Virus record (IMG/VR): IMGVR_UViG_3300009085_000026
Strand: one strand, 5' to 3'
Length of the DNA: 64,000 nucleotides
Source of the DNA: an uncultured virus (IMG/VR IMGVR_UViG_3300009085_000026)
Taxonomy: Duplodnaviria > Heunggongvirae > Uroviricota > Caudoviricetes
Part shown: piece after piece, positions 15,916 through 37,840 of the stretch
Layout: every line of letters starts with the position of its first letter
How positions within the stretch are numbered: the stretch's first letter is position 1
Notes under the pieces: generated by a model
What the model saw: the letters and a program-made list of their open reading frames with translations, nothing else
Told to the model about the DNA's origin: nothing
The model's database searches: none
Position numbers and translations under genes: made by a program

Positions 15916-16461
15916 TTACCCGAGAAGTACTTGCCCCTTAGGGTCGAGAGCGAGAATAGTCTTACAGCTAGGACAGCGATACTTCCCGGCCTTGATAGCC
16001 TTGAGCTTCTTGTCGCAAATGGGACAAGCAAATACTCGAGGATAGATGGAGTTCTTTGTATTGAGCTTCGCTTCGAAGTAAGTGATAGCATCTTCTCTAT
16101 ATTGGCCAAAGAAGAAGAACTGTTCGAAGCCGAGGATCTTGAAAATGTCCATGACTCTTGGACAAACCCCGACCATAGCCATGTTACCATTCAGAGTCCC
16201 AAGTGACTTATAGATAGCAGCACAAGCCCCAACGCCAGTGCTAGACATGTAGCTAACTCCGTAGCATACGAAGATGATATTAGTGTAACCGGCGTTGATA
16301 GCCATCTGGACTTTCTTTTGGAACCAAGAGGAATTGTAGGTGTCGATCTGACCCTTCATTTCGAAGGAGATGCACTTGGGAACTTTATCGATCTTCACCA
16401 AGTCGATGAAGAGGTCGTTGTTCTTTTCGTCATCGAATCCGATGATGATGTCTTTATTCAT
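15916..16461 (-). CDS. anti-sigma factor antagonist (STAS) with C-terminal Zn ribbon, copy 1
   Basis: GQIDTYNS, YMSSTGVG, IFKILGF, CPIC...CPSC; start set at the ATG after the GGAGGAG SD. Confidence 0.88.
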   Translation of the reverse strand: MNKDIIIGFDDEKNNDLFIDLVKIDKVPKCISFEMKGQIDTYNSSWFQKKVQMAINAGYTNIIFVCYGVSYMSSTGVGACAAIYKSLGTLNGNMAMVGVCPRVMDIFKILGFEQFFFFGQYREDAITYFEAKLNTKNSIYPRVFACPICDKKLKAIKAGKYRCPSCKTILALDPKGQVLLG

Positions 16462-16513
16462 ATAGCTCCTCCTTCTGACCAAACCAGCATAACTATGCGT
16501 CCTCCATAGTTAT

Positions 16514-16535
16514 ATTATAGATCAGAGTCGAAACT
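16514..16535 (-). promoter_or_regulatory. putative early promoter AGTTTCGAC-N7-TATAAT
   Basis: Copy of a motif repeated about 10 times. Confidence 0.8.
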
Positions 16536-17490: not shown

Positions 17491-17898
17491 CTATTTGTTT
17501 AGGTTTCTAAGCTTCTCTTCTAGTTTATAAATCATCTTAATTGCTGTATCAGCCTCTTCTTCGTAGGGAGTAGATTTAGCCATTGCTCTAAGAATTTCTA
17601 ACCTAGATTCCATTCTGCTAATCTCCAGAGAGCTCTCGGCAGACTTTAACTCTTCTAATTCTTCCCAGTAGCTGGAGTGTTTACTAGTTCGCTCTATACC
17701 TTCTACACTAAAACTAACCTTTATTTCGTTTTCGCGATTTTCGTCTATCCACTTTTCTGCATCTTCAATTTTGTGAAAAATTAGGGGATTATTAGAATAA
17801 TAATAGTCGCAAAAGATATTGTACTTAAGATCTTTATCTTTTACTACTGTTGAGGCAAAAAAATGTAGTAAGTCTTTTATCTGTTTATATTCAGACAT
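17491..17898 (-). CDS. hypothetical protein
   Basis: GAGG SD. Confidence 0.65.
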   Translation of the reverse strand: MSEYKQIKDLLHFFASTVVKDKDLKYNIFCDYYYSNNPLIFHKIEDAEKWIDENRENEIKVSFSVEGIERTSKHSSYWEELEELKSAESSLEISRMESRLEILRAMAKSTPYEEEADTAIKMIYKLEEKLRNLNK

Positions 17899-17915
17899 AA
17901 TAATTACCTCAACAT

Positions 17916-17945
17916 AAAGCCCCGGTTAAAGTCCCGGGGCTTTTT
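17916..17945. terminator. Rho-independent terminator
   Basis: AAAGCCCCGG...CCGGGGCTTTTT. Confidence 0.8.
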
Positions 17946-17960
17946 GGAGAGAGGAGGAGA

Positions 17961-18515
17961 TCAGCCCAGATTAACCTTTGCCTCCTGAGAGACGGCAAGG
18001 ATTGTCTGGCACTCGGGACAGCGGAAGCGACCAGCCTTAGAAGCCCTGAGTCTCTTGGTGCAGATAGGACACTTGATGATGACAGGAAAGAGAGTCTCAG
18101 CTTTAGCAGCTACGGCTTTCTTGGTGAAGAAGTCGAAAGCGTTCTCGAGACTCTCCGCCATATTGAAAAACTGAGAGAAGCCGAGAAGCTGGAAGACCTC
18201 ATAGACCTTCGGCTGAATCTCCACCATGACCATGTCCCCGCCCTTGGGCTTCACCATCTTGAGGAAAGCCGTGAAGGAGCCGATACCAGTGCTGGACACA
18301 TAGGAGAGTCCAGCCATGTGGAAGATAATCTTGTCAAAGCCAGCATCGACTACCTTGCCGATCCTCTTCTGGAAGTAATTGCTGTTGTAAGTGTCAAGAT
18401 AGCCTGTGAGATAGATGGCAATCACTCCGGGAGAATCATCGAACTTCTGAAGCCTGATCTTACAGCTATCATCCTTCTCGTCATCAAATCCCTGAACGAT
18501 TTCGTTGTTCGTCAT
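17961..18515 (-). CDS. anti-sigma factor antagonist (STAS) with Zn ribbon, copy 2
   Basis: GYLDTYNS, YVSSTGIGSF, EVFQLLGFSQFF, CPIC...CPEC. Confidence 0.9.
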   Translation of the reverse strand: MTNNEIVQGFDDEKDDSCKIRLQKFDDSPGVIAIYLTGYLDTYNSNYFQKRIGKVVDAGFDKIIFHMAGLSYVSSTGIGSFTAFLKMVKPKGGDMVMVEIQPKVYEVFQLLGFSQFFNMAESLENAFDFFTKKAVAAKAETLFPVIIKCPICTKRLRASKAGRFRCPECQTILAVSQEAKVNLG

Positions 18516-18524
18516 TTTCTCCTC

Positions 18525-18713
18525 CTACTCTCTGCAGCAGGGAGCATCACAACCTTCGCAGGTTGCAAATTCCTCTGCCAGTGGAAGAAGAGGAAGAGAG
18601 TTCTCCAGTTCCACTCTCATCCTTGCAAGAGGCTTGTAGACGGAATCTTCAAGCTCTCTATTCTCCCACTCCTTCATGATCTTCTTCTGTCGCAAATTCA
18701 TTCTGCCCGTCAT
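18525..18713 (-). CDS. hypothetical protein
   Basis: GGAGGAG SD. Confidence 0.55.
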   Translation of the reverse strand: MTGRMNLRQKKIMKEWENRELEDSVYKPLARMRVELENSLPLLPLAEEFATCEGCDAPCCRE

Positions 18714-18737
18714 ATTTTCTCCTCCCTCGTCTATCGA

Positions 18738-19013
18738 TTAAAGCTTGAGCTCATTTAGAGCTGCTTCAGCTTCCGCAGTTACAAGATCCTTATCATTGGC
18801 AATTTGAATAAGAACCTTAGCAAGTTCACAATAAACTTCGATATTATCGTAGACGGTAAAGCGAGTCCCATCCTTCAACTTCATCTTCCAAGATCCAAAA
18901 ATCTCATTAGATTTCCTTGACGAGAACTGTAGCTTAAATGGACCTACATAACCCATATTCTGAGAGGTCATTACATAGATCTTACCTGTGTTCGCATCCT
19001 TAAGCTTTACCAT
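18738..19013 (-). CDS. hypothetical protein, apparently leaderless
   Basis: ATG 6 nt after the early-motif TATAAT. Confidence 0.65.
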   Translation of the reverse strand: MVKLKDANTGKIYVMTSQNMGYVGPFKLQFSSRKSNEIFGSWKMKLKDGTRFTVYDNIEVYCELAKVLIQIANDKDLVTAEAEAALNELKL

Positions 19014-19019
19014 AGTTTA

Positions 19020-19041
19020 ATTATATATCCTCGTCGAAGCT
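19020..19041 (-). promoter_or_regulatory. putative early promoter AGCTTCGAC-N7-TATAAT
   Basis: Repeated motif. Confidence 0.8.
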
Positions 19042-19470
19042 TTCCTTATCCGTTAAAAATTTCCAAAAGCACTGAAAGAAATCTATGGCTGAAGATACAA
19101 GAATGACCCACAGTTGCCAAAGAAAGTTGAGAAAATGAACGGTCAAGAATACAATAGAAAAAAGAAGATTGAATACCTTATAAATGAATAGACCAACAGT
19201 AAAATGAGTCATCATCTTAGTGGCATATCTATGAAGATTGTTTAGTCGATGCCCATTTATTTTTTTGATGTTTTCCCTATCGATTGAACAGTTTACAAAG
19301 TCTTCCCATAAAGCATCTCCACTTGGATCTATCTTTTTGCCAAGCTTCATAGCATAGATACCATGCCTACCATGCCACAGCCTAGCATAAACGGCTGCAT
19401 CTTCTCCATCTATTGTTTTTCTAAAAATACTTATAAAGTTAGAAACCTCTTTACGCTTCTTATCATTCAT
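19021..19470 (-). CDS. hypothetical membrane protein
   Basis: Hydrophobic C-terminal third. Confidence 0.6.
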   Translation of the reverse strand: MNDKKRKEVSNFISIFRKTIDGEDAAVYARLWHGRHGIYAMKLGKKIDPSGDALWEDFVNCSIDRENIKKINGHRLNNLHRYATKMMTHFTVGLFIYKVFNLLFSIVFLTVHFLNFLWQLWVILVSSAIDFFQCFWKFLTDKESFDEDI

Positions 19471-19533
19471 GTTGCACTCTCAATCTTTAAGGATAGATTA
19501 CGTTCATTGCGTTGTTGGATCTTTTTCTTTCCA

Positions 19534-20055
19534 TTAATAAGTTCCTTTCACACTTAATCTATATCTCCTAGAATATATGGGAGATCTATCGCGATATCCA
19601 AATTTCTCTCTACTAATACTGCCTGCTTCGTCTATGGCAGCCTTTGTATAAAGTCTAGCTGGATCTACTATACAACCAACTCTACCTATATCAAGACGAT
19701 CTGCATCTATACAAGTCCTAATTGTAATATCAGCTTTATGATCACATCCAACTGTATGTTTAGAAAGAGCTTCTGTGAGAAGCTTAAACTCTTCGTCATT
19801 AAGATTAATTTTGTCTCTATGCTTTCTAGCATAGTCAGCTGCTCGAGGTCCATGGCTATAGTCGCTGCCGTTGTTGAGTCTTCGGCAATCATGAAGGAAA
19901 GCAAAATACTGGATCACCTTTTTATTTGCGCCGTTCTTGTCGGCAAGGCGAAAACCATTTTTGTGGACTCTGATCCAGTGGTCAACTCCATGTGTGCAAT
20001 GGGTAGAAAGAGAGAACTGTTTGACCACCATCTCTAAGAATTGTCGATCAGTCAT
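19534..20055 (-). CDS. HD-domain phosphohydrolase
   Basis: HGVDHW, FLHD, HGPRAA, DADRLD. Confidence 0.85.
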   Translation of the reverse strand: MTDRQFLEMVVKQFSLSTHCTHGVDHWIRVHKNGFRLADKNGANKKVIQYFAFLHDCRRLNNGSDYSHGPRAADYARKHRDKINLNDEEFKLLTEALSKHTVGCDHKADITIRTCIDADRLDIGRVGCIVDPARLYTKAAIDEAGSISREKFGYRDRSPIYSRRYRLSVKGTY

Positions 20056-20246
20056 GCCCAGCGAATCTCCTTCGGAGGAAAAAATCCCTTGGCTGTGGTA
20101 TAGAGAAAGTTGGGCATCTTGCGAAGAGCATTGTCAATAAAGAAGTCTCTCTTGTCCTCATTATCGAAAATAGCCATCTTAGAAACCTTCTCGCCCCTTG
20201 GTCCTCTCTCTAACCAGTTAACTGACCATCTCCCTTTCTCTACCAT
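20052..20246 (-). CDS. hypothetical protein
   Basis: GGAGG SD downstream of an early promoter motif. Confidence 0.65.
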   Translation of the reverse strand: MVEKGRWSVNWLERGPRGEKVSKMAIFDNEDKRDFFIDNALRKMPNFLYTTAKGFFPPKEIRWA

Positions 20247-20269
20247 ATTTGATCCCCTCCAATACTTTC

Positions 20270-20291
20270 ATTATATATCCCTGTCGAAGCT
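20270..20291 (-). promoter_or_regulatory. putative early promoter AGCTTCGAC-N7-TATAAT
   Basis: Repeated motif. Confidence 0.8.
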
Positions 20292-20293
20292 TT

Positions 20294-20887
20294 CTATACA
20301 ATACGTAGAGGGGTTTCCCATCTCTTGATTTTCAGTCTATACTTCCTGCGAGGCTTAGAAATTTGTTTTTCAGCCAATTTGTGCAAAGTCAAGCGCTGAT
20401 CTTTATGTGCCCTTATCAAATACAAGTTATCTTTTATAACTCTGAAAGCAATTACATTTTTCGGCAAAGCTGGTTCAACCATGATTATGGGGCTATCTTC
20501 GTTTTCGGGAACTAGTTGGTCTTCCCTCCACTTCTTCAAAATTTCTTCCGCCTGCTTTTTCGCTAAAAGCATTTTCTCATCATCAACTGAATACTCATAA
20601 GCTTTGAGTTTTTCAATGGCCTCAGTAAAGCCTAAATTGACAAAGAACTTTATTTTATGACTTATCGACTTATACTCTTCTACTCTCTTTTCAGTAAATT
20701 GAGAATTAAGCAGATGTCCCTTGGCCTCTTCATATTGATCAGTAAAAGATAAATACTGTGCAAGAAGCTTTTCAGATCCGACTGCATCTGGATGTGTCTT
20801 CATGACGATCTTATGATATGCGCTCTTGAGATCATCAAGAGTCTTAATCTTTCCTTCGTCGATAAGATCGATGAGCGTCTTTGTCAT
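20294..20887 (-). CDS. J-domain (DnaJ-like) protein
   Basis: DLKSAYHKIVMKTHPD with the HPD motif; start set at MTK after GGAG. Confidence 0.75.
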   Translation of the reverse strand: MTKTLIDLIDEGKIKTLDDLKSAYHKIVMKTHPDAVGSEKLLAQYLSFTDQYEEAKGHLLNSQFTEKRVEEYKSISHKIKFFVNLGFTEAIEKLKAYEYSVDDEKMLLAKKQAEEILKKWREDQLVPENEDSPIIMVEPALPKNVIAFRVIKDNLYLIRAHKDQRLTLHKLAEKQISKPRRKYRLKIKRWETPLRIV

Positions 20888-20891
20888 ATAG

Positions 20892-22136
20892 TTAAGCTCC
20901 AATAGAGGTGATGCGAACTCCAAAGTTTTCAGAGTCCACTACTACAATCTCTCCCTTCGCTATTGGCTTCTGGTTGACAAGGATATCCACCTGTTCACCC
21001 TCGTGCTTATCAAGTTCTACGATGGTACCCTCAGCCATTTCCATGACTTCCTTGATTGGCTTCGTAGTTCGTCCAAGCTCAACTGTTATCTCCATATAGA
21101 TGTCATTCGGATTATTGCCAATAGTAGTTGACTTCTCAATAGCATCGAGCTTCTTAGTTATCTGTACAGCCATTTTTCGTCCAACCATTCCCGGACGGCA
21201 ATGGAACTTGTACTGATCATCAACCTTTAAGAAAAGAGGATCTTTGGGTCCAACATTGTTGAGCTTGATTATGTCGTCAACCTTTAAGGAAATGACGTCC
21301 TTCATTGGAATTTCCACCGATCCTACCTCGGCAATTACCTGGACATTAGCAGTAGCAAGTCTCTCTCTAAGCTGAGCGACATTTTCTAGATTTATTTCTT
21401 TTGGTGCAGAGATCATGAACTGAGTAGAAAGCTTAGGGATGATTGACTCGATTGTTACAAATGGGACGCAGAGGTTTATGAAACCCTCAACATCTTCCAT
21501 GCGAGTCTCAAGAGTAATGAAGAAGCACATCTCGTTATTGGGAACTATCTGGGCGAACTGAGGATTAGATTCAAAGCGAGAAAGCCTCGGTCGAAGTTCA
21601 ACTATAGTTTTCCACGCTTCCCTAAGCCCACCGAGAAGCTTAACTACAGTTCCTTCCATGACTGAAGTTTCAATCTCCGTAAGCTCTCTATCCCTTTTTG
21701 ATTGAGCAACTGACTTGCTCACGGAACCCATGAGCCTCTCAATGATGAATGAGGTCAGGTTCGTATCGATTTCCAAAACGATAGCTCCCTTGAGGGGATC
21801 CATTTCAACTATAGCAAGTGTAGTCGATTTATAGGTGGACCTGATAAACTCTTCATAAGCAAGCTGGTCGACTGATGCCACAACGACATGAGCTGGGACA
21901 TGAAGACTTGCCGCTAGAACATTTGAGGTTAAGCGAGCGAAGACCTCGTGCATCATCCTTACTGTCCGAGTCTGCTCTTTCGAAAACTTGTCAGGACGAT
22001 TGAAGTCATAAATCTTGATCTTGCGCTGACGATCTATCTTGCCTGGTACTTCCTCGAGAGTTGGGAGCTCTCCCATAGAAATAGCCTGAAGCATTTGATC
22101 CATCTCTTCGTTTGTAAGAATCTTCGAATCATTCAT
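20892..22136 (-). CDS. fliM: flagellar motor switch protein FliM fused to an extra FliN-like SpoA domain
   Basis: [11 protein letters not shown] (CheY-binding-like), [35 protein letters not shown], then a second SpoA domain ITVELGRT...[16 protein letters not shown]...[16 protein letters not shown]. Confidence 0.92.
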
Positions 22137-22160
22137 ATCATTTGCCCCCCAACAATCCTT

Positions 22161-22182
22161 ATTATACATCTATGTCGAAGCT
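22161..22182 (-). promoter_or_regulatory. putative early promoter upstream of fliM
   Basis: AGCTTCGAC-atagatg-TATAAT. Confidence 0.8.
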
Positions 22183-22211
22183 TTCTATGGTTTTAATTTT
22201 GTATCCTTTTT

Positions 22212-25181
22212 CTAGAGTTCTCCACCTAGAGATTTCCATGTATCTATCCCGAGACCATAAAGGATGGCTTGTTTAAGAGATTTCAATGCGACATTATTTG
22301 GCTTGATCTTAATAATGGGCACTAGATTCATAGCAGCTCTATGAAAATTTTTGTTTAATATATCCCAGTAAATTTCAGTAGCTTTTATGTACTGCTCAGG
22401 AGTTAGAAGATCTACTAGAGATCCACCCCTCAGTGCGATGAATTCCCTCAACATATTTGAAGCTTCTTTATTGTTGTGATTCAATTTCAAGCTTTGCTGA
22501 AGAAGATTGATAACTTTATCATATTTAAAATAGTCTCTTTTATTTGCCCCAAGAGTCTTAGCTTCTTTGAGAAGATCGTTGGACTTAGCAATAACCACTG
22601 GAGAGAGTGGAGCTTCTCTCATACCCAACTTAATTTCTAGATCAAAAAGAGTTTTTTCCACATTGTCTCTTAAATTTTTTGGAATAATTTCAGAATATCT
22701 ATCGAGCGACTTGTAATCCAATAGAGATAAATAAACTGATCTAATCAAATTTGAGTCAGTTAAAGTTTTTGATAAAGAAACCATCTTAGAAATTTGCTTG
22801 ATCAGATTGGCTTTAAAAATGTCGGGACCGTCTTTTATCTCGCTTAGCTTGAGCGACAGCATTCTAGCTCTCTGATAGTCTGGTACAATTGTTAAGATAT
22901 CATTAATTCCTTTTTCTGCCTTATCTACCAAGATCTTAAACTCAGTAGAGTCTTTATTCAACTTTGAGATGGCAAATAAATTAAATTCCATCGAAAAGCA
23001 TAGTCCAGAGACGTCACCGTAGACGGGATCCCAGGAGTTGATAAATCTCCCTCCCAATGTGTTCAAAGAATATCTAGAGTTTTTCAGATAATACTCTATA
23101 TCATAATTTGTTTGCCCAGGAAAATTAAAGTCCCAAATTTCTTTAGCTTTTTCTAAATCTCTAATTGCTTTTGAGAAATCGGCATTTCTATAAAAATCAA
23201 TTCCCTCAGCTACTTTCTTGTCTATATCTGATATGACTTTTGCCACCACAAATTGATTTACTTCTGCTATCAATTTTGGGATAGTGTTGTATTTGGCTCT
23301 AACATCTTTATTTTCCTGCAAATTAAGCGAGCTTCCATAATTGACTAGGGCAGCCTCGTAAGAAGACTTGGATGATTCATAGTCTTTTCTATTTTTATCA
23401 CTAAGAGCTAGAGAATAAGCTCCATCACCCTTCTTTGTTAACTGAGTTGCCAGAAGAACATTGTTTCTTGCTTCTACTAGGCTAACATTAATTTCAAATA
23501 TTGATTTGCTGAGATTACTCTCAACATCTTGAATTTTGATCATAAGAGATACAATATCGGAATTGTTTTTTATATACAAAAAGTCTTGGTCTATTTGAGA
23601 TAGCGTAAAGTTTATATCCGATATGGTATTTTCAATATTTCTTAAAGCCGTCTCATATTCTTTAATTGCCAAATCGGGGTACTTATAGCTCATATTGTTG
23701 CTAAACCCATTTGCCAAATTGAACCCCTTGGAATAAATAGAGGTCACATCATTCATATTTTTTTCAAATATATTAAGCTTATATTTCATCATTGATGCGA
23801 CTAGGGAAACATCTACAGACTCTGTAAATACCAAAAGATTATTAAGGCTATCTCTAATACTTGAGGCTCTAGAATTCATAACTTCATCGGTATAGTCCTT
23901 GCTCCATTCAGAAATCAGTTTTTTAGTAGAAGAATAAATATTATAAAGTTCGGACCTATTAGTAGATATTTTATCTAAATTTTGAGAGTTAGATATAGAG
24001 ACTAAAACGCTCTTTTCGTTTATAACGAATTTTGAAGCCAAAGATTCTTTCCTAGAAAAATCTAGCCAAATATTTACATCTGAGATATATTTCTGTACTT
24101 TTTCACTTTCTACATCTGTAGATAAAATATCCAGTGCTAACAAGCTGTAATTAGTTGTCCTCTTAGCTGAGACTAAAAAATCTTCCACGCTAGTGTTTTT
24201 ATCGAAAAAGTTATGAGTTTCATTATAAGAATTAGTAGCGATTATAGCTATACTATCAAATACTTCCAGAGAGACTTTCATCCTTGGCGTCTTTATTGCC
24301 TCTAAGATGCCTTCCGTTTTTCCATCCCTACCGAATACCAATTTTTCCACAAAATAAAGGTATATGTCGTTTGGATCTTCTCCATTCTTAGAATCAATAG
24401 AGTTGTTAATCTCTCTTACTTTGAGAGCTAGCTCGTAAAGCGCCTGCTCTCTGTTTTCTTGATCCTTGAGAAAGTGAAGTGAAGATACAAAATTATTTCT
24501 ATCTTGCTCTACCGCAAATCTTTCGATGAGATAATTGTAAGCTACAGAGAGGGAATTAATTTCCAATTCGCTATTAGCTGCTTCTAAAGATATTTTCTTA
24601 ACAGAAGAGATAACAGAAAATATCTGATCTTTTTGAAGATCAGAGTAATTCTCTTTTTCAAAAGATACCTTATATAAGGATAGCAACTCAGAATACTTAG
24701 CGATAGCATCAAAGTATCTCTTCTCTTCTAGAAGATTTGCTATCAAGTCCATATTTTCTTTAAACTTCTTTTTGTTGGACATTCTATAGAAGGACTTATT
24801 TACTATAGTTATAGTGTTTTTGATTGAACTATCTGGGAATGGGAAAATTTCATTTAGCTTTGCTAATGACTTTAAAGCTTCTACTTCATCTTCTTCTTTT
24901 ATTTTTTGTGTAGCCACCCCTACTTCACTTGAAAAAGTTTTATAAACATCTAAGATTTCGTTTGTTATTTTATCTACTTCTGGTCGCAAATCTGGAAAAT
25001 TATTCATCATTTTAATAGCTAAATTGAGAGCTTCAGAGTAATGCTTGGTTACCACAAGATACTGAGCTTGCTTTAGCTCTTTTTCCCCATTGCCTTTACT
25101 AAAAGCAGATAATGGAAAAAAGAACAAAAAGAAAAGAGCTAGGATGAATATTTTAGAAAAGGCAAATTTGTTGATGTTCAT
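22212..25181 (-). CDS. large exported alpha-helical/TPR-like protein
   Basis: N-terminal signal peptide; TPR-like segments such as EKRYFDAIAKY and NADFSKAIRDLEKA. Confidence 0.7.
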   Translation of the reverse strand: MNINKFAFSKIFILALFFLFFFPLSAFSKGNGEKELKQAQYLVVTKHYSEALNLAIKMMNNFPDLRPEVDKITNEILDVYKTFSSEVGVATQKIKEEDEVEALKSLAKLNEIFPFPDSSIKNTITIVNKSFYRMSNKKKFKENMDLIANLLEEKRYFDAIAKYSELLSLYKVSFEKENYSDLQKDQIFSVISSVKKISLEAANSELEINSLSVAYNYLIERFAVEQDRNNFVSSLHFLKDQENREQALYELALKVREINNSIDSKNGEDPNDIYLYFVEKLVFGRDGKTEGILEAIKTPRMKVSLEVFDSIAIIATNSYNETHNFFDKNTSVEDFLVSAKRTTNYSLLALDILSTDVESEKVQKYISDVNIWLDFSRKESLASKFVINEKSVLVSISNSQNLDKISTNRSELYNIYSSTKKLISEWSKDYTDEVMNSRASSIRDSLNNLLVFTESVDVSLVASMMKYKLNIFEKNMNDVTSIYSKGFNLANGFSNNMSYKYPDLAIKEYETALRNIENTISDINFTLSQIDQDFLYIKNNSDIVSLMIKIQDVESNLSKSIFEINVSLVEARNNVLLATQLTKKGDGAYSLALSDKNRKDYESSKSSYEAALVNYGSSLNLQENKDVRAKYNTIPKLIAEVNQFVVAKVISDIDKKVAEGIDFYRNADFSKAIRDLEKAKEIWDFNFPGQTNYDIEYYLKNSRYSLNTLGGRFINSWDPVYGDVSGLCFSMEFNLFAISKLNKDSTEFKILVDKAEKGINDILTIVPDYQRARMLSLKLSEIKDGPDIFKANLIKQISKMVSLSKTLTDSNLIRSVYLSLLDYKSLDRYSEIIPKNLRDNVEKTLFDLEIKLGMREAPLSPVVIAKSNDLLKEAKTLGANKRDYFKYDKVINLLQQSLKLNHNNKEASNMLREFIALRGGSLVDLLTPEQYIKATEIYWDILNKNFHRAAMNLVPIIKIKPNNVALKSLKQAILYGLGIDTWKSLGGEL

Positions 25182-25200
25182 ACTATCTCCTCCGAGTATA

Positions 25201-25222
25201 ATTATACCTCAGAGTCGAAGCT
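25201..25222 (-). promoter_or_regulatory. putative early promoter
   Basis: AGCTTCGAC-tctgagg-TATAAT. Confidence 0.8.
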
Positions 25223-25247
25223 TTTATTTAAATCAAACTATATATGC

Positions 25248-25985
25248 TTATATTTCTATTTTGATAAACTTTTTTGCATTAGGGAACGAGCCATTGTAGG
25301 ATTTTCCAACTTTGCCAAAGTTGCTATGTACGTGGCCAAACAGGTGGAGTCTCGGTCTCTTCATATAGATCAAGTTCTTTAGTGGCTTGCTACCTATATT
25401 TACTATTTTATCGGTTAATCCAAAGGTAGAATCGAGAATTCCATGAGGAGGAGAATGAGTTATTAGAATAGTGTTGTTATCAATAAGGGGAGCAATCTTT
25501 TGAAGATCTTCTTCTTGTTCTAGCTCGTTCTTTTCTAGACTAGTCCATTGATAGCCAACGAAATTGTATTTGCCGAAATTGTATTTCTTGTTGTGAGCGT
25601 TGTAAATGTTAGCGCCATTCTTCCAAAGGCAATAATCGTGATTTCCCCTTACTACAAAGATGGGCTTCTTTGCTGTTGCAAGAATAGCTCTTATTTGAGC
25701 TTCTCTAATATCAAGGGCTCTAAACAAGATTCCTTCTCTGTTGTCTATTTTCTTGTGGATTCTTTTAAGTGTTTCGTCTGCATCTTCGTCAGCAATCGGC
25801 AAATCCTGAAGGAAGTCGTTCACTGTAGTTGGCATCATTTTCTTGATTTCGCCCTCAGAGATATAGTCTTCCATCAAGTCGCCAGCGATTACGCCAACAT
25901 CATAATCCCTTTCTTTGAGGAGTTTGGCAAACCACTCATAAGCTTTGATGTAGCTGTGTAGATCTGCCGTGAACAAGATCTTCAT
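25248..25985 (-). CDS. calcineurin-like metallophosphoesterase, apparently leaderless
   Basis: DLH, GDL, GNHD, THSPP, GHVH motifs. Confidence 0.9.
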   Translation of the reverse strand: MKILFTADLHSYIKAYEWFAKLLKERDYDVGVIAGDLMEDYISEGEIKKMMPTTVNDFLQDLPIADEDADETLKRIHKKIDNREGILFRALDIREAQIRAILATAKKPIFVVRGNHDYCLWKNGANIYNAHNKKYNFGKYNFVGYQWTSLEKNELEQEEDLQKIAPLIDNNTILITHSPPHGILDSTFGLTDKIVNIGSKPLKNLIYMKRPRLHLFGHVHSNFGKVGKSYNGSFPNAKKFIKIEI

Positions 25986-25991
25986 GCTTAC

Positions 25992-26013
25992 ATTATAAAT
26001 CAGCGTCGAAGCT
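25992..26013 (-). promoter_or_regulatory. putative early promoter
   Basis: AGCTTCGAC-gctgatt-TATAAT, 6 nt before the ATG. Confidence 0.8.
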
Positions 26014-26014
26014 T

Positions 26015-26044
26015 ACAAAAAAGCTCCTCAAAAAGAGGAGCTTT
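26015..26044 (-). terminator. Rho-independent terminator, near-identical to 34063-34090
   Basis: AAGCTCCTC-loop-GAGGAGCTT followed by a T run on the minus strand. Confidence 0.9.
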
Positions 26045-26068
26045 AAATAATTAAAGTTATTTTAATTT

Positions 26069-29000
26069 TTACTGAGGAATGCAATTGGGCACTTTAGGAC
26101 TGCCTCCATTATTTCCACCATGACCCCATTCGCTAGGGTTGTCCATGGGATTACTTTCTCTTAGATCCATTGATTCCCAATCAATATTGATCATGCCAAT
26201 ATTTTTGCTCCAAATGTTTTCCATCATTGCCCGAAGACTTTCATAATCTTTTCTAGTCATAGAACCTTGGCCGATCTCAAACAAATAGCCCTCGTATAAT
26301 AAGTCTAAAAAATTATATGCCGCCGTCGGGCCTCTAGCAGGAGTAAGACCAAGTTCATGTTCATTTATTTCGCATTCATATATGATACCGTCTGGACCAG
26401 CCATCCAATTAAGAAACAAGGCGCCATAGATCGGGTCACTTCTAATTGGAATACCCAAATTGGACCAATAATGTTTAGAGCCACTAGAAGAATAATCCCA
26501 ATGCATTCCCGCTATAAAGCCATTGAGAGTTTTATCTCCGAGATCTACTTTACCAATTATATCGCTTATAGAAAAATGACAATAAAAATCACAATTAAAT
26601 GGATCACTTGATCTTTTTAGCCACATCCTGCCATTACCATCCTCAATCGCTAAAGAGTGATCTGGATGCGTATGCCAAGTTCCAATATATTCATAATTCT
26701 TGGAACATCCCCTATCGGTCCACTCTTCCGACCATGTCCAGGCCGAGACACCTGCTACACAAAACGTCGGACCTTGTTCAACTATGGGAGTCGAGAAGTA
26801 TCTGTTGGTTTCCTTATTGTAAAAAATATCTCCGGTCGTTTCAAAATTTCCAGATAAACCCGTAATTAGAGCTATAGACATTGCATCTCTAACGGCTGCT
26901 TGAGGAGTTTTAAATTCATCTCCTGGAGCTTTACCATCAAAATCCATTAAATTGACGGGATCGTTTAAACAATAATTATAAGAAGATCCTACTTTATCTT
27001 CTGTTAAAAATCTATGAATAATTGGATCATAATATCTAGCGTTAAAATAGTATAGTCCAGATTTATCTAACTCTTTATCAGTAAATCTAGCTTTCCCACT
27101 GTCCCCGGAGGTCAATTCTCCCCAAGTATCATAGGTAAAGCTGTTTTCTATGTTGCCCGAAGAATCCGTTATGTTTTTTCTAGAAAATAGATTATCCACA
27201 TAGAAATACTTTAATTCTTCACTTGGAGGGTCATAAGTTTTAATGAAGGCCCCCATAGTAGCTTTTCCAGTTAGTAGATTAAATACTGATTCTATCAAAG
27301 TGGAATCTTCATATGTTTCTTTTAAAAGTATTTGATCTCCGGAATATAAATAATATATTGTTTGAGCATTACCAGATCTAGCATATTCCTCTTTTTTTAT
27401 TCTTAAGCCGGAAATATTATACGAATATTTATCTTTATTACCGCCAATATACTCTATCTCTCTTAATCTATTTAGTCCATCATGAGACATTTTATTAAAT
27501 CTATCAGAAACTTTAAATACATTACCTTCGTTGTCATAAGTTATATCCCAGTTTGTAGAATTAAAAGAATCTTGAAAGTTTCTTAATCTTTTTTGATTCT
27601 TATAAATAGAATTTTTTGTATCGCTATCTAACAATTCATAGGTCCAAGTTTTGGTTCCAACAGTTAGCAAATTAGAAACTTTATCGTAATCATAAGTCTT
27701 GCTACCTAAGCTTTCACTATAGAGTCTGTTCATCCCGTCATAAGCATAATTATTTTCTGATCCTAAGTTGTCGTCTCGAGTTATTATATTGCCTAAAAAG
27801 TTTTTGACAAAAGTCATATCTGATATGTTAGCATCACTATTGTTAATAGAAGATAATCTCGCGAATTCGTCATAATCAAAAGAAATTGTTGTACCCGATC
27901 CATATTCAATATAATTCAAACTTCCATCAAATCCTAAAACATTTTTGAATATCGGAGACGAACCATCCGAGTTTGCAGAAAGAATAGAAAAATTATAATT
28001 GTAAACATCGGGATTTGGGTGCCACTGAGAATTTAAATATAAAGTTTTTGTCCAAGGAGAAGCTCCAGAGCCAATCACCGTTATACTTAGTATTGTCCCG
28101 TCGGCGCTATAAGCTTTTTGAACTCTCATCGTTTTATCATCAATTGTTTGAGCAAATTCAGTTACGGATCCAAAATTGTTATATTTGCTCGAGTTTAAAA
28201 CTATAGAAGTTAAACCCTCTTTTTCTTCTGAAGTTGCTATGCCAAATTGACAATATTTCTGTACAATTTCTATATCAGGAGTTCCGTGTGTAATTTGTTT
28301 TTCTACCCCATCTCTGTCATTGTATTCATAAGTTGTTAAAATTCCTCTTCTGTTTGTATTAGCAACATTTGATCCGTTTTTATTAAAATTGTTTATCAAC
28401 GTAGTTCCATCTGAATAGACTACTTTTTCTAGGGAACCTGCCGAAGAAAACATATAGGAAACAAATTCACCAACATTATTTGTCCCATTTGGTTGTTGAA
28501 AGCTTATTAACCTTCCAGAATAATCATAAACATTAGTAGTTATCAACTCATCACCTGTTGCATTTTTGTCAGTCCAACAGTGAGTAGTTTTAGCTCCTCT
28601 ACCCAACCAATCGCTAATCTGTTTGGTTTGTATATAGTTTGTGGCATCTTCATATGATTTGTTGATAACATAATTTTCATCATCTTTATAATAACTATTA
28701 GAAATGTGTCTTTCCGTGCCATTTCCGTCTATTATGTTGGTATAATAAGAGTCAACCACTCTTCCAAGGTTATCATAAACGTTTCGTGTTAAACCATAAT
28801 GATTTGTTTCATAAGAGCTTGGAGAGGCTCCGGTAGCTTCATTAAATACTCTATTAGCTATTGGCTTGTTGAATACGGGTTCATAGTCAGTTTCCGAAAT
28901 TCCTATTAGATAAGCTGTTACTCCTCCTTGGCTATCTTCCCAATCTATTCCAGCATTTTCGATATTTGGCTTCCACTTATAAACAGATGTTGGCCTATAT

Positions 29001-31864
29001 AATTGATCATATTGAATTATATTTCTGAATCCAAGAGAATCAGTTGTCGTCAATCTTCTATTAGAATCATCATAGGTATTTTTAATCAAAAATGTTTCTA
29101 CTGAATCAACTATTGAAGATTTAGTTAACATTCTGCCTTCTCCATCATAAGTATACTGTATTGTATTCTTTGGATAATCGGAAGAATATTCTGTTTCGCC
29201 ATCTGCCTGAGTCATATAAGATTCTTTTTTCACAAGTCTCCCTAAGATATCATAATCAAATGAATTAATTATGTGTTCGTGATCTTCTGAGTCTAGATTG
29301 TTCGTCATTTGTTGATCGTCTTTTACAACAAATGAAGATTTCCAAGAGGGACTAGTACCATAAATAATAGAGAGTATGTTTCCCAGAGGTCTAGTAATAG
29401 AAATTAAGTTGTTAGTTGTTCCATCATAAGCATAGGCAGTAGTTGGATATCGAACTCCATCTGAATAACCTAAACTAGAATCAAATATTTCCTCTGTATT
29501 TAGAGTAGTTCTATCGACTACTTGAATGTGCACTAAATTTAAAGAAGAATCGTAATCGTTAAAAGTACAACTGTCATTATCGGGATCGTCATCGTTCATT
29601 TTTCTAATAGCGCCCGCTAAGCCCATACACTTATAAGTACTAAAACGAGATGCATAGGTTGCTCCACTTGTACCAGCATAAGGATTGCTAAAAGGAGCTG
29701 TACCAAATTTAGAGTAAGGATCGGATTCGCCAGTCCAGAATGCTACATGTTGATACCAAGTATATTGAGGAGTACCAGCTGAACCTTCAACCTTATATGA
29801 TCGTTTTACGTGACCATAAGAATCATAATCCATGTTGTCAGAGTATTTTTCTGTGCCACCAGTAACACTATCATCGCTAACAAAGAATCTTGTTTTTGTG
29901 ACCTCATAATAATCGGTGACATTAGCAGAGGCAGTATTAACGTTAGCTGTTTTATTTAAAAAAATCCAATCTGAGCCATTCCAAACATAATTTTTAGTTT
30001 GAGAAGTTCCCTTATAGGTAGTAGTAGATTGATCGTGAAAAATAACAGTTTTAGTTTTATTTGTAGAAGTAGGAGCACTAGATCCCTTTTCCATAGTAGT
30101 AATAGTAGTACTATACGGGTGGTATGTATGATGTTGAGTGGTGTATTCTTCTATATAGCCCTCTCCCGAACAATAAAAAGAATAATCATAATCAATCTGT
30201 TTCCAAGTAGCTACACTAGAACTAGCCTTTGTTACTACATTTTCAACTGCTGGCTTATTCATTCTAGAAATGCCTGACTCATAATGTGGCGGCTCATAGT
30301 TGTCGTCTATGTAACTCCAAGAATCTTCTCTGTAACAGATTTCTCTAAAAGTATAAACAATTGTGGCTTCCCCAGAGTCGTTTGTTATAGTAAAAGTATC
30401 ACCAGCTGGAGTAGTGTTAAAAGTATTTGAATAAGCAACTTCTTGCAATGCAGAGAAATAAGTAGATTCACTAGTTTGTATCTTAGTTGCTGTAAAAGAG
30501 GTATCTTCAGCAAAAGCAGTAGAATCAAGAGCCTCATACTTGTCTAGCCAGCTATTAGCAGCAGTAGTGCTAGATAGAGAGTATCTACCTATAAACTTGT
30601 CCCCAGCTCTTAAAATACCATTACTAGTATTGTCAGAGGAAACCATAGATACAAAGACTCGTTTAGAAGATATTGAATAATAATAGAACTTGATAGCACG
30701 GCCATCTGTATGAGCGATTCTATCTAATTGATAGGTAGGATCTGAGCCCGACCAAGTGTATGTTAAAGTATTTTTATTTGTAGGATCGCTCAAAGTAGCT
30801 ATTTTACCAGAGCTATCAAAAGTGGCATATTTGCCATCAGAAAAATAAAGTACTACCGTGTCGGCTGTAGTATCCCACCAATAATCATAATAGCCATCTC
30901 CAGGTGGACTATCTATATAGTGCTCTGTCATTGTTACTTCATAGTGAATAACGGCTTTTTCTTCAGGGAGTCTTATATCTATATGCATATGAACACCAGC
31001 CGTTATTACAGTACAATCATAATAGCCAGCTCCATACCAAGTAGAAGCTCCAGATCCTGGATCGACGGGAAGGTTATATTTTCTACCAGATGGGAGAGTA
31101 ATTGCAAAATTCTCTTCACCAGGAGATACATAAGGAAGTTGCCAATTCCACCCTTTTGCAAATCTATAGTGAGAATTTGCGGTAGTACTAATTGGTGAAC
31201 CCGTACTATCGCTAGTTGGAGAACCATCGTCTCCCAAAATTATATTATAAACTAAGTCAGAGCTAAATTTTGACGAGACCGATAAGCCTATTCCCCTAGC
31301 AGATACGGAAACATCATTTCGACTCATCGAAAGACCGCCAAAATAAGGATCTACACTAGCTATAATTGGCAATCCAGAAAGAGTACCAGATTCATCTACT
31401 TTATAAGAACCCATACCAGGAGTATAATCAGTAAAGTGTTCAACTTCAACTGTGATAGTTTTATTTTCTAAATCTTGACTAATTTTCTTTGTTGGTCTCC
31501 AAGATTTTGTTCCCTCATGATAATATAGAACTTGAATGAGATTTTCTTGCTCAAAATCTACAGGGCATTCATAAGGAATAGTTAAAGAGGCGGGAGCTAA
31601 AAACTTTAATCGGTTTGGTCCAAATCTATAAATATTTCCAAACTTTTTTAACTGTTCTTTTTCAATAAAAGCATTAAATTTCTCGAATTTAATTTGACTA
31701 GATTTTTCTTTGAGATTAGAAAAATCTAGATTATATGAATCAAACTCTAATTTAACTTTTTCGGAAGACAAGCTATTAGGTCCCTCTGTGAAAGTAAAAA
31801 CTTTTTCATCAAGCTTTTCAAGTCCATTACAATATTTAAAGGGAGCATTCAAAATCTCTGCCAT
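26069..31864 (-). CDS. Rhs/YD-repeat protein with ZU5-like N-terminus and JAB-like/DUF4329-like C-terminal domain
   Basis: YD repeats; core end FTDKELDKSGLYYFNARYYDP..RFLTED..YNYCLNDPVNLMDFDG; C-terminal E...WHTHP...FS.SD; N-terminal FGP..LKF..PASLTIPY...VEHFTDY. Confidence 0.88.
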   Translation of the reverse strand: MAEILNAPFKYCNGLEKLDEKVFTFTEGPNSLSSEKVKLEFDSYNLDFSNLKEKSSQIKFEKFNAFIEKEQLKKFGNIYRFGPNRLKFLAPASLTIPYECPVDFEQENLIQVLYYHEGTKSWRPTKKISQDLENKTITVEVEHFTDYTPGMGSYKVDESGTLSGLPIIASVDPYFGGLSMSRNDVSVSARGIGLSVSSKFSSDLVYNIILGDDGSPTSDSTGSPISTTANSHYRFAKGWNWQLPYVSPGEENFAITLPSGRKYNLPVDPGSGASTWYGAGYYDCTVITAGVHMHIDIRLPEEKAVIHYEVTMTEHYIDSPPGDGYYDYWWDTTADTVVLYFSDGKYATFDSSGKIATLSDPTNKNTLTYTWSGSDPTYQLDRIAHTDGRAIKFYYYSISSKRVFVSMVSSDNTSNGILRAGDKFIGRYSLSSTTAANSWLDKYEALDSTAFAEDTSFTATKIQTSESTYFSALQEVAYSNTFNTTPAGDTFTITNDSGEATIVYTFREICYREDSWSYIDDNYEPPHYESGISRMNKPAVENVVTKASSSVATWKQIDYDYSFYCSGEGYIEEYTTQHHTYHPYSTTITTMEKGSSAPTSTNKTKTVIFHDQSTTTYKGTSQTKNYVWNGSDWIFLNKTANVNTASANVTDYYEVTKTRFFVSDDSVTGGTEKYSDNMDYDSYGHVKRSYKVEGSAGTPQYTWYQHVAFWTGESDPYSKFGTAPFSNPYAGTSGATYASRFSTYKCMGLAGAIRKMNDDDPDNDSCTFNDYDSSLNLVHIQVVDRTTLNTEEIFDSSLGYSDGVRYPTTAYAYDGTTNNLISITRPLGNILSIIYGTSPSWKSSFVVKDDQQMTNNLDSEDHEHIINSFDYDILGRLVKKESYMTQADGETEYSSDYPKNTIQYTYDGEGRMLTKSSIVDSVETFLIKNTYDDSNRRLTTTDSLGFRNIIQYDQLYRPTSVYKWKPNIENAGIDWEDSQGGVTAYLIGISETDYEPVFNKPIANRVFNEATGASPSSYETNHYGLTRNVYDNLGRVVDSYYTNIIDGNGTERHISNSYYKDDENYVINKSYEDATNYIQTKQISDWLGRGAKTTHCWTDKNATGDELITTNVYDYSGRLISFQQPNGTNNVGEFVSYMFSSAGSLEKVVYSDGTTLINNFNKNGSNVANTNRRGILTTYEYNDRDGVEKQITHGTPDIEIVQKYCQFGIATSEEKEGLTSIVLNSSKYNNFGSVTEFAQTIDDKTMRVQKAYSADGTILSITVIGSGASPWTKTLYLNSQWHPNPDVYNYNFSILSANSDGSSPIFKNVLGFDGSLNYIEYGSGTTISFDYDEFARLSSINNSDANISDMTFVKNFLGNIITRDDNLGSENNYAYDGMNRLYSESLGSKTYDYDKVSNLLTVGTKTWTYELLDSDTKNSIYKNQKRLRNFQDSFNSTNWDITYDNEGNVFKVSDRFNKMSHDGLNRLREIEYIGGNKDKYSYNISGLRIKKEEYARSGNAQTIYYLYSGDQILLKETYEDSTLIESVFNLLTGKATMGAFIKTYDPPSEELKYFYVDNLFSRKNITDSSGNIENSFTYDTWGELTSGDSGKARFTDKELDKSGLYYFNARYYDPIIHRFLTEDKVGSSYNYCLNDPVNLMDFDGKAPGDEFKTPQAAVRDAMSIALITGLSGNFETTGDIFYNKETNRYFSTPIVEQGPTFCVAGVSAWTWSEEWTDRGCSKNYEYIGTWHTHPDHSLAIEDGNGRMWLKRSSDPFNCDFYCHFSISDIIGKVDLGDKTLNGFIAGMHWDYSSSGSKHYWSNLGIPIRSDPIYGALFLNWMAGPDGIIYECEINEHELGLTPARGPTAAYNFLDLLYEGYLFEIGQGSMTRKDYESLRAMMENIWSKNIGMINIDWESMDLRESNPMDNPSEWGHGGNNGGSPKVPNCIPQ

Positions 31865-31918
31865 GATGTTCCTCCTGGTCTAAATTAAACATGATTTAAA
31901 TTTTTTATCATTTAATTA

Positions 31919-33970: not shown

Positions 33971-34000
33971 TTCTAACCTCCATTTTTAACTCAGACAAGT

Positions 34001-34007
34001 TTATCTT
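34001..34007 (-). promoter_or_regulatory. putative late promoter AAGATAA for the fibre-Rhs operon
   Basis: Intergenic motif upstream of a GGAGG SD; more copies at 34043 and 34053. Confidence 0.5.
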
Positions 34008-34062
34008 GGTGATAGAAAAATATTTTTTAAATTAGATACTGATTATCTTTTTTTATCTTCGC

Positions 34063-34090
34063 ACAAAAAAGCTCCTCAAAAGAGGAGCTT
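34063..34090 (-). terminator. Rho-independent terminator, near-identical to 26015-26044
   Basis: ACAAAAAAGCTCCTC-AAAA-GAGGAGCTT on the plus strand. Confidence 0.9.
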
Positions 34091-34096
34091 AAAAAT

Positions 34097-34282
34097 TTAA
34101 GTTCTACTAACTTTTACCATTATTTTATGGTTATGACTTTGTTGATTGCAAGGAGCCCACCCAGTGATAGCTTCATTATTTGGACCACAATAATATACCA
34201 TAGTCCCTTCGGGAAGTATGTCTAATTTTATTAATTCTTCTTTTAGAAGTTTTATTACTTCTTCTTTAGAAAAATGTTTCAT
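34097..34282 (-). CDS. hypothetical protein
   Basis: Last ORF before the terminator. Confidence 0.5.
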   Translation of the reverse strand: MKHFSKEEVIKLLKEELIKLDILPEGTMVYYCGPNNEAITGWAPCNQQSHNHKIMVKVSRT

Positions 34283-34287
34283 TCTTA

Positions 34288-34617
34288 TTATAAATCTATA
34301 AATTTATCTGAAGCTTTAAAGTTCTTTATTTTTTCTACATCTATAAACATTTCTTTAATCTTATCATCTACTTTTTTCTTTTCATTAACCAGACCAAATA
34401 CTTTAGATGCTAGATCGTAGGGAATTTCCACATCAAATACTTCTCCTACGGGATCTCTTGGACCAATAGGCACAGAATCTAATATGAACATTCCCCCAGC
34501 GTCATTTATTATTATATTGATATCCTCAATAAACACTTCCCATATCAACCTAAACATATTATGAGAATAATGTAAATCACTTTCACAAACTCTAGTCTGA
34601 TATAGTTTTGCTTGCAT
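34288..34617 (-). CDS. hypothetical protein
   Basis: Coupled ORF. Confidence 0.65.
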   Translation of the reverse strand: MQAKLYQTRVCESDLHYSHNMFRLIWEVFIEDINIIINDAGGMFILDSVPIGPRDPVGEVFDVEIPYDLASKVFGLVNEKKKVDDKIKEMFIDVEKIKNFKASDKFIDL

Positions 34618-35080
34618 TCTTTACCTTATTTAAAAATTGATCCCACGTTAAAGATGCATTCAATCTTCTATATTCTGGATCGAACTTTATCCCTTCGTTT
34701 CCAATAGAGGACTTATCCCACTTAGGAGCTGTGTTAGTCCATCTTTGCGAAATCCATTTCTTTATAACATTAGCTGGAATAAATACAGTCGCTGACTTTT
34801 CCATTTCGTGATTAGTCAAAGCAAACCAGCCCCTAAATGGATGATCTACTGTATAATTGTTGGCTATAAAGTATCCCCGCTTACCATCTATCTCAATAGA
34901 TGTCCCCTTTATTAGAACATCGCCTCTTTCCTTATTTTTAACAGCTGACTCTACGCTTTCAGAGGCCTTACCATATAACTCTTCATTATTGATAGCATCT
35001 ATTCCCTCCTCTTTAAGCCACTCTACTAACTTATCTTCAAATTCTCTACCATACTTATGTGCATCAAAATTGTCTTCCAA
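34592..35080 (-). CDS. putative PD-(D/E)xK nuclease
   Basis: GREFE...GDVLI....IEIDGK pattern. Confidence 0.55.
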   Translation of the reverse strand: MEDNFDAHKYGREFEDKLVEWLKEEGIDAINNEELYGKASESVESAVKNKERGDVLIKGTSIEIDGKRGYFIANNYTVDHPFRGWFALTNHEMEKSATVFIPANVIKKWISQRWTNTAPKWDKSSIGNEGIKFDPEYRRLNASLTWDQFLNKVKNASKTISD

Positions 35081-37831: not shown

Positions 37832-37840
37832 AATATCCTC

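Follow-up and report, generated by a model that had tools for sequence, protein, structure and literature searches.

The window, that is, the whole stretch of 64,000 nucleotides (nt; 64 kb) analysed here, comes from an uncultured virus of the Caudoviricetes (IMG/VR record IMGVR_UViG_3300009085_000026), and within it we studied positions 20294-22182, a span that contains two genes on the minus strand and one copy of a promoter-like motif. The larger gene encodes a FliM protein of the spirochaete type with a second, FliN-type SpoA domain fused to its C-terminus; its protein families are known, and their setting and configuration are new. The GGXG loop through which FliM contacts FliG is lost from this protein and from its two nearest homologues, and the peptide predicted to dock phosphorylated CheY (CheY-P) and the folded domains are conserved among them. 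Judged from these features, the phage protein probably tampers with the swimming of infected cells, and we see an even chance that it does so as a decoy or poison subunit, a single-chain FliM:FliN uncoupled from FliG.

The longest reading of the open reading frame (ORF) spans 20892-22169 on the minus strand and encodes 425 amino acids (aa). However, translation almost certainly begins at the ATG at 22136, which gives a protein of 414 aa (20892-22136), because the homologues P0001 and P0002 begin at the equivalent Met, a GGGGGG Shine-Dalgarno sequence lies ahead of this codon, and the upstream ATG falls inside the TATAAT of the promoter-like motif. In the 425-aa numbering, the Pfam family PF02154 (FliM) matched residues 54-247 (E 1.7e-61) and PF01052 (FliMN_C) matched two stretches, the best of them 356-423 (E 2e-40). 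In the 414-aa numbering, the NCBIfam model TIGR01397 (fliM) aligned residues 5-330 to its positions 1-319 of 320 with 314.3 bits against a cut-off of 219.6, and TIGR02480 (fliN) aligned residues 345-412 with 102.3 bits against a cut-off of 84.05. Moreover, the second SpoA domain (SpoA2) aligned to the FliN structure 1yab_A (E 9e-21). The original prediction, made from the sequence alone, of a phage-borne single-chain FliM and FliN-type SpoA protein with an N-terminal CheY-docking-like peptide is thus borne out: both NCBIfam cut-offs are passed and the peptide aligns with the host motif. The parts of the gene are as follows (414-aa numbering).

20892-22136, minus strand: fliM-fliN fusion gene, 414 aa plus stop (Pfam, NCBIfam, alignment).
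22074-22136, minus strand: homologue of the CheY-P docking peptide, residues 1-21 (alignment with the host LSQDEIDQLL-type motif).
21429-22010, minus strand: FliM middle (CheC-like) domain, residues 43-236 (Pfam, and model against 4fhr_A).
21717-21728, minus strand: G-S-V-S at the GGXG site, residues 137-140, with a 3-residue insertion after it (alignments).
21147-21350, minus strand: SpoA1, FliM's own SpoA domain, residues 263-330 (Pfam, alignment, model).
21099-21146, minus strand: variable linker, residues 331-346, in place of the host acidic tail (alignment; low predicted local distance difference test score, pLDDT).
20901-21098, minus strand: SpoA2, from the C-terminus of host fliY/fliN, residues 347-412, with the putative FliH patch I397-V398-V399 kept (TIGR02480, alignment).

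The gene stands apart from any other flagellar gene, as had been predicted from the first reading. No other flagellar gene turned up when 81 ORFs of the window were scanned with Pfam, and tblastn with three phage FliG proteins found no fliG in the 64 kb (best E 0.14).

The homologue search covered about 5.8 billion clustered proteins. The nearest homologues were P0001 (84% identity, 414 aa) and P0002 (74% identity, 416 aa), which together with the window fusion are the three copies compared below, and P0003 is a fragment identical to the window. All of the remaining 117 matches listed were FliM proteins of 340-381 aa that showed 52-57% identity and covered only 76-80% of the query; those with a name were assigned to Spirochaetia, Spirochaetales, Marispirochaeta, Spirochaeta, Treponema or Termitinemataceae. 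The fusion is collinear with spirochaete FliM up to residue 335 (~55% identity), and a 16-residue linker and the second SpoA domain then replace the acidic tail. Likewise, a metagenome scan gave at least 80 host fliM loci with 50-57% identity, in which every match ended at or before residue 345; the contigs of P0001 and P0002 were not among these loci. The host operon runs motA-motB-fliL-fliM-fliY, and host FliY consists of a CheY peptide of its own, a CheC-like part, a Q/M/G-rich spacer and a C-terminal SpoA domain. Residues 345-412 of the fusion are 62-74% identical to this SpoA domain of FliY, whose gene lies directly downstream of fliM (58 of 80 host-type loci). The FliY SpoA domain was found 858-1176 nt (median 964) past the fliM end in all 58 assessable host loci; of the other 22 loci, 18 stop short of 925 nt past fliM and 4 lacked a match to the FliM C-terminus.

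A normal host gene of the same fused form, an alternative raised together with the original prediction, was rejected, as fliM and the fliY SpoA domain are separate in 58/58 assessable host loci. From the collinearity to residue 335, the identity of SpoA2 to FliY and the separate genes in host loci, we conclude that the phage gene is fliM joined to the 3' end of the neighbouring fliY by an in-frame deletion, which is not the normal host arrangement. In the sequence of events that we propose, a jumbo-type tailed phage of freshwater-sediment spirochaetes would have captured the neighbouring host genes fliM and fliY. The in-frame deletion would have taken the FliM acidic tail and ~320 FliY residues, including the CheY peptide, the CheC-like phosphatase domain and the Q/M/G-rich spacer, and joined the whole of FliM to the FliY SpoA domain.

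Comparison of the three fusions with the 117 host FliM proteins revealed 43 positions that are at least 95% conserved in the hosts yet altered in all three fusions. Positions G138 and G140 are Gly in 100% of the 117 host proteins, and both are altered in 3/3 fusions. The GGXG site reads G-S-V-S in the window protein and P0001 and G-S-N-N in P0002, and is followed by the 3-residue insertion; in the PDB alignment, the loop residues face the GGKG of Helicobacter pylori FliM (4gc8). The GGXG of the FliM middle domain and the EHPQR of the FliG middle domain form the FliM-FliG contact, as described in the relevant passages of PMC6700473 and PMC4642947. In contrast to this loop, other surfaces look intact. 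The changes in the docking peptide relative to the hosts (I12M, L15M, Q9N/D) are conservative and are conserved in all three copies, and by this alignment the CheY-P docking peptide is kept. In Salmonella FliN, the hydrophobic patch V111-V113 is required for FliH binding according to a passage of PMC6700473, and these residues align to I397-V398-V399 of the fusion, an alignment by which the FliH-binding patch is kept as well. The original suggestion that the protein could enter the C-ring as a FliM:FliN mimic has therefore to be qualified, because GGXG is lost in 3/3 copies and the protein would be uncoupled from FliG.

The pattern of change among the three copies is uneven along the chain. 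One 16-residue segment is identical in 3/3 copies. The share of columns identical in the three copies is high in the segment before the middle domain (100%), SpoA2 (80%), the N-terminal peptide (71%), SpoA1 (66%) and the middle domain (64-81%), and lower in the former GGXG loop (56%), the other linkers (53% next to the N-terminal peptide, and 43%) and the SpoA1-SpoA2 linker (19%). Because this share is high in the domains and the peptide and low in the linkers, the comparison points to purifying selection, both on the folded parts and on the docking peptide. In a quick tree built from residues 36-240 only and from 39 of the 117 host FliM proteins (every third), the three fusions formed one clade with a Shimodaira-Hasegawa-like approximate likelihood ratio test (SH-aLRT) value of 100. 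The stem of this clade measures 1.0 substitutions per site, whereas host tips have a median of 0.04.

The full-length AlphaFold2 (AF2) model had a mean pLDDT of 59.6, and its middle domain superposed on Thermotoga maritima FliM 4fhr_A with a target-side template modelling (TM) score (TMt) of 0.88 and a root-mean-square deviation (rmsd) of 2.4; 4gc8_A, 3soh_A and 2hp7 were matched with TMt 0.85 each. For the C-terminal part, residues 251-414 were modelled from a checked alignment (A8, 49 rows), which gave a pLDDT of 84.6 and a predicted TM score (pTM) of 0.77, with low pLDDT in the linker between the SpoA domains. The best PDB matches of this model were 4yxc_B, 4yxb_B and 4yxb_A (TM 0.72-0.76 over 155-163 columns), and the NCBIfam model TIGR02551 (SctQ) aligned residues 251-411 in one stretch, with 53.3 bits against a cut-off of 100.8. 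Since the C-terminal model superposes on the 4YXB/4YXC fusion and TIGR02551 spans residues 251-411, the two SpoA domains are predicted to pair within the chain, which we regard as probable on the strength of the model.

Compared with the canonical spirochaete FliM and FliY/FliN, the phage protein has the same N-terminal CheY-docking peptide, CheC-like middle domain and SpoA domain, with ~55% identity to FliM. However, two genes there are replaced by a single chain here, and the acidic tail of FliM and the N-terminal peptide, CheC-like phosphatase domain and spacer of FliY are gone. Canonical FliM has GGXG where the phage protein has G-S-V-S and an insertion, and the canonical genes sit in the flagellar operon of cells, whereas the fusion is phage-encoded and lies outside any flagellar operon. 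The engineered Salmonella FliM(SpoA)::FliN protein (4YXB, 4YXC) shares the fold of both SpoA domains and the FliH hydrophobic patch, but was made in the laboratory from the SpoA parts alone, whereas the phage protein is natural and full-length, with the FliM N-terminal and middle domains and a 16-residue linker. SctQ of the injectisome (Spa33, SpaO, YscQ) also carries tandem SpoA1-SpoA2 domains in one chain behind an N-terminal domain. It is the counterpart of FliM fused to FliN, and a 14-residue linker between the SpoA domains suffices in Spa33, according to the passages of McDowell et al. (PMC4832279) that treat it. Unlike SctQ, the phage protein has a true FliM as its N-terminal part and scores below the TIGR02551 cut-off, and the window holds no type III secretion system (T3SS) genes. 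With regard to the internal-start product of SctQ, the fusion has a Met348 that lacks a Shine-Dalgarno sequence. As a separate observation, within 21093-21139 a sigma-70-like site at 21111-21139 (TTGAGA, 17 nt, AATAAT; 10/12) precedes Met348 by 16 nt, and this Met is the first residue of the second SpoA strand. Such a site would allow a free FliN-like product from Met348, as in SctQ; however, sites of this kind occur at chance level (5 found, 4.7 expected), the Shine-Dalgarno sequence is lacking, and Met348 is also conserved in host FliY.

A search for related fusions in other phages, as suggested with the original prediction, found FliM-FliN hybrids in unrelated IMG/VR records. A region-restricted protein search gave two further hybrids, P0133 and P0146, and P0133 as query led to five viral records in IMG/VR.

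L083 (G001): separate fliM, fliN and fliG.
L084 (G002): 329 kb with terminal repeats, 100% complete; fliG followed by a hybrid of 431-465 aa.
L085 (G003): a fliG of M and C domains only, followed by a 423-aa hybrid.
L086 (G004): a 334-aa hybrid, in a record that is only 8% complete.
L087 (G005): 154 kb, 90% complete; a cut-down hybrid of 271 aa.

The hybrids of L084-L087 resemble the window fusion in joining a FliM N-terminal peptide and middle domain to a FliN-type SpoA domain on a viral record. However, they have one SpoA domain by Pfam, FliM's own being replaced by a divergent segment or lost, whereas the window fusion keeps both. Neither the DnaE nor the J-like protein of the window (described below) had a match in these five records, and their FliM proteins formed a separate clade in the quick tree; because of these differences, the fliM captures by these phages and by the window phage look independent. 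GGXG is kept in all three records in which fliG stands beside fliM or the hybrid (L083, L084 and L085) and lost in L086 and L087, whose records yielded no FliG, and in the window, with none found in its 64 kb. The presence of fliG thus appears to track the retention of GGXG, a pattern that we regard as suggestive. As side observations on these records, a GGDEF diguanylate cyclase gene at 4809-5966 of L084 lies ~3 kb upstream of the fliG and FliM-FliN cassette and may offer a second handle on host motility, and the FliG of L083 (11366-12580) begins with a hydrophobic, transmembrane-like stretch of ~25 residues before FliG_N.

Other collections yielded less. In INPHARED, tblastn with the fusion hit 7 records: the top one (H1) is bacterial-type DNA (murJ, fabI, pomA), H2 is unverified and unannotated, and the other five are unannotated. 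The viral-contig scans for the fusion and for P0146 gave no match, none of the 7 phage FliM or FliG proteins matched a PHROG family, no BFVD structure matched at E <= 0.001, and literature searches found no description of phage-encoded FliM, FliN or switch-ring parts. MW495066.1 ('Microcystis phage MaAM05', L001) was considered as a phage fliM and rejected, as its fliM lies among murJ, fabI, engB, pomA and an acyl-CoA dehydrogenase gene and reads as bacterial; a 2026 comment argues in the part concerned that MW495066 is bacterial (PMC13623518).

The setting of the fusion is that of a phage genome. The window is 97% coding with 90% of its ORFs on one strand, and most of its small ORFs belong to no Pfam family. 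It encodes a gp32-type single-stranded DNA-binding protein, a split DnaE, a 5'-3' exonuclease, homing endonucleases, a dUTPase and a dCMP deaminase, as well as two thymidylate-synthase-like proteins, a GMP-reductase-like protein, a CCA-adding enzyme, Hsp20 and a peptide deformylase; no tRNA genes were found in it. The C-terminal half of the window DnaE is 63-69% identical to three IMG/VR records. One relative, G006 (158 kb, with a CheckV completeness of 70%), shares synteny with the window at 2.1-17.5 kb and 35.1-64 kb, with matches to 37 window ORFs by tblastn, and encodes baseplate-wedge and tail PHROGs, an endolysin-type peptidase and a DNA ligase. The block between these two syntenic stretches is as follows.

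17491-35080, minus strand: accessory island of 17.6 kb with the fusion and the J-like gene; no counterpart at that place in G006.

Because this 17.5-35 kb block has no counterpart in the syntenic G006, we place the fusion in a lineage-specific accessory island of jumbo-type tailed phages. In the relatives G006-G008, which are fragments, there was no match to FliM or to the flanking 989-aa and 173-aa proteins. Apart from the fusion and the J-like gene, the island holds genes for a STAS protein, the 989-aa protein with a signal-peptide-like N-terminus, a metallophosphoesterase, a 1931-aa RHS-repeat protein and a 683-aa protein.

With the original prediction, a chimera of the contig with host DNA had been named as a danger, and this proved very unlikely in view of the phage gene content, the synteny with G006 and identical bridging contigs from an independent metagenome run. 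Logan contigs of run X2 (one of five runs, all of them freshwater-sediment metagenomes of 2017 that may belong to one campaign and among which X1 may be the source sample) bridge 20154-20457, 20736-21144, 21173-21575 and 22115-22421 with zero differences and cross both gene borders, and runs X3 and X4 supply further identical pieces. More broadly, such a find might be imitated by a phage contig into which host DNA was misassembled, or by a fragment of a bacterium or plasmid with its normal switch gene: GC content is slightly higher at 20-22 kb (0.42) than at 22-30 kb (0.34), the window itself has no structural genes, and bacterial DNA with fliM does occur misfiled in phage databases, MW495066 being an example according to the relevant part of PMC13623518. 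Nevertheless, this explanation is hardly credible here. Besides the four bridged stretches, copies of a phage-specific motif stand on both sides of the two-gene unit, core phage genes syntenic with G006 flank it on both sides, identity to any host FliM is only ~55%, the fusion occurs in no host locus assessed (0/58), and the coding density, strand bias and scarcity of Pfam families are those given above.

We favour the decoy or poison subunit, to the even degree stated at the outset, because the protein would offer every FliM/FliN surface but the one that grips FliG. Its paired SpoA domains would provide a ready-made FliM:FliN heterodimer base, as in SctQ and the engineered Salmonella fusion. 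It would compete with host FliM for CheY-P, FliY/FliN, FliH-FliI and lateral FliM contacts, whether it stays in the cytoplasm or is exchanged into the C-ring, and would not pass signal and anchorage on to FliG. Switching, motor integrity or flagellar export would consequently be blunted in infected cells. Several points weigh against this reading. The position equivalent to A93 of FliN, which is a CheY-P contact in Salmonella, is Glu in the fusion. The full-length model is poor (pLDDT 59.6) and does not show the SpoA pairing, its SpoA arrangement being uninterpretable (4yxb TMt 0.23), and the C-terminal model, though good, may reproduce 4YXB from the training data. The comparison of fliG with GGXG is small, at 3 versus 3 records with L086 only 8% complete, and a phage fliG elsewhere in the genome, outside the 64-kb window, is possible. 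Furthermore, residual FliG binding is possible because the passages concerned of PMC4642947 describe two points of FliM-FliG contact, of which GGXG is one.

The same features might instead belong to a working replacement subunit, an auxiliary gene product that would enter the host C-ring as a functional FliM and FliN unit and keep or retune the motility and chemotaxis of the infected cell while host expression is shut down. The complete FliM architecture with its conserved CheY peptide and the strong purifying selection on all folded parts suit such a role, as do the fliG and fliM/N cassettes with intact GGXG in other phages, which have the look of construction, not disruption; a FliM-FliN fusion engineered in Salmonella was also reportedly functional (Kihara et al. 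1996). However, GGXG is lost with a 3-residue insertion in all three copies, the loop is variable (56% of columns identical), no fliG is found in the window, and the very long stem (1.0 against 0.04 substitutions per site) suggests a changed function, so that we consider a replacement unlikely. The long divergent branch and the lost GGXG would also be expected of a scaffold repurposed away from the flagellum, with the SpoA pair and the CheC-like domain serving phage partners in assembly, a secretion-like step or regulation, and its neighbours in the accessory island do encode proteins of unknown function, the signal-peptide-bearing 989-aa protein and the RHS-like giant among them. This reading strikes us as decidedly improbable, given that the conserved elements are host-facing (the CheY-docking peptide, the invariant 16-residue segment and the FliH patch) and that FliM-FliN hybrids occur together with FliG in independent phage lineages, a sign that the motor is the target.

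The second gene of the unit and the motif copies that bracket it are the following.

20294-20887, minus strand: J-like gene, 197 aa, with a THPD motif; starts 4 nt after the fusion stop, HPD motif present.
22161-22185, minus strand: promoter-like motif GAAAGCTTCGACA-NN-GAT-N-TATAAT, 25 nt upstream of the fusion start, with the GGGGGG Shine-Dalgarno sequence between.
20270-20294, minus strand: next motif copy, right after the J-like gene and ahead of a 64-aa ORF (20052-20246); closes the two-gene unit.

A J-domain gene was predicted to follow the fusion, and an HPD-bearing gene indeed begins 4 nt past its stop, although its match to PF00226 (DnaJ; 18.4 bits) does not reach the Pfam cut-off of 27.8. 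It belongs to a family of ~215-aa proteins with 42 clusters in a representative library, in which T-H-P-D is at least 90% conserved over 25 aligned members and P33 is invariant. All 8 genome matches of this family are Spirochaetota or Spirochaetaceae metagenome-assembled genomes, and its neighbours are unrelated to flagella in 7 host loci, with an MCP gene 3 kb away in one and a FlgO-like gene in another. The J-like gene is a second host-derived gene, and only adjacency links it to the fusion; the idea that it recruits DnaK for subunit exchange found nothing else in its favour, the family being a chromosomal one of Spirochaetota in non-flagellar contexts. Downstream of the unit, a 173-aa protein (19534-20055) gave only weak matches to HD/HDIG-type phosphohydrolases (E 0.006-0.01).

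The motif GAAAGCTTCGACANNGATNTATAAT has 5 strict copies, all on the minus strand between 19020 and 26016, against 0.00 expected, and its relaxed form has 8 matches against 0.18 expected. The copies bracket the unit of the fusion and the J-like gene and cluster in the accessory island. By its spacing, the motif is not a canonical -35/-10 (sigma-70) promoter, because 7 nt separate the end of its upstream box from the -10 hexamer, and a sigma-70 and terminator scan of 19800-22400 gave results at chance level. Thus the fusion does have its own copy of the motif at 22161-22185, as first noted, but the early timing that had been ascribed to it is unsupported.

Elsewhere in the window, two paralogues at 15916-16482 and 17961-18515 combine a STAS domain of the anti-sigma-antagonist type with a C-terminal zinc ribbon and may belong to a host-takeover set; a relaxed motif copy at 16514-16533 precedes one of them. 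One of the few plus-strand genes (38875-40779) encodes a hybrid PAS-PAS-HisKA-HATPase-receiver histidine kinase that matches phrog_5982 (E 4.8e-99), which makes it a recurrent phage kinase. Four tandem paralogues at 35920-38464 (211, 227, 215 and 207 aa) all match one G006 gene (69963-70631), a four-fold tandem amplification. The DnaE gene (Pol III alpha) is split into 47410-48771 and 49450-51684 with two small ORFs between, and the DnaE halves of G006 are likewise apart (82729-83976 and 87604-89802). Two tandem sets of genes for a MoxR-like ATPase and a DUF2201 (metallopeptidase/VWA-like) protein lie at 55751-58281 and 60390-63978.

Flagella serve phages as receptors. Tentatively, and with more doubt than confidence, we propose that the flagellar switch is also a recurrent target of spirochaete phages, one that unrelated jumbo phages would hit in two ways: with a cassette of fliG and a GGXG-keeping hybrid, or with a lone FliM:FliN protein that lacks the FliG contact and would act as a dominant-negative motor uncoupler or as a CheY-P/FliH sponge. 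Since no PHROG family or BFVD structure matches these proteins, standard phage annotation would miss the class or dismiss it as contamination. If the FliG contact is lost and the CheY and FliH surfaces are kept, the fusion would be a ready-made separation-of-function allele for the study of C-ring assembly and subunit exchange. If the proposed function is true, the fusion would be the first case of a phage encoding a structural mimic of a rotor subunit, and phages would manipulate the motility of their hosts from inside the rotor.

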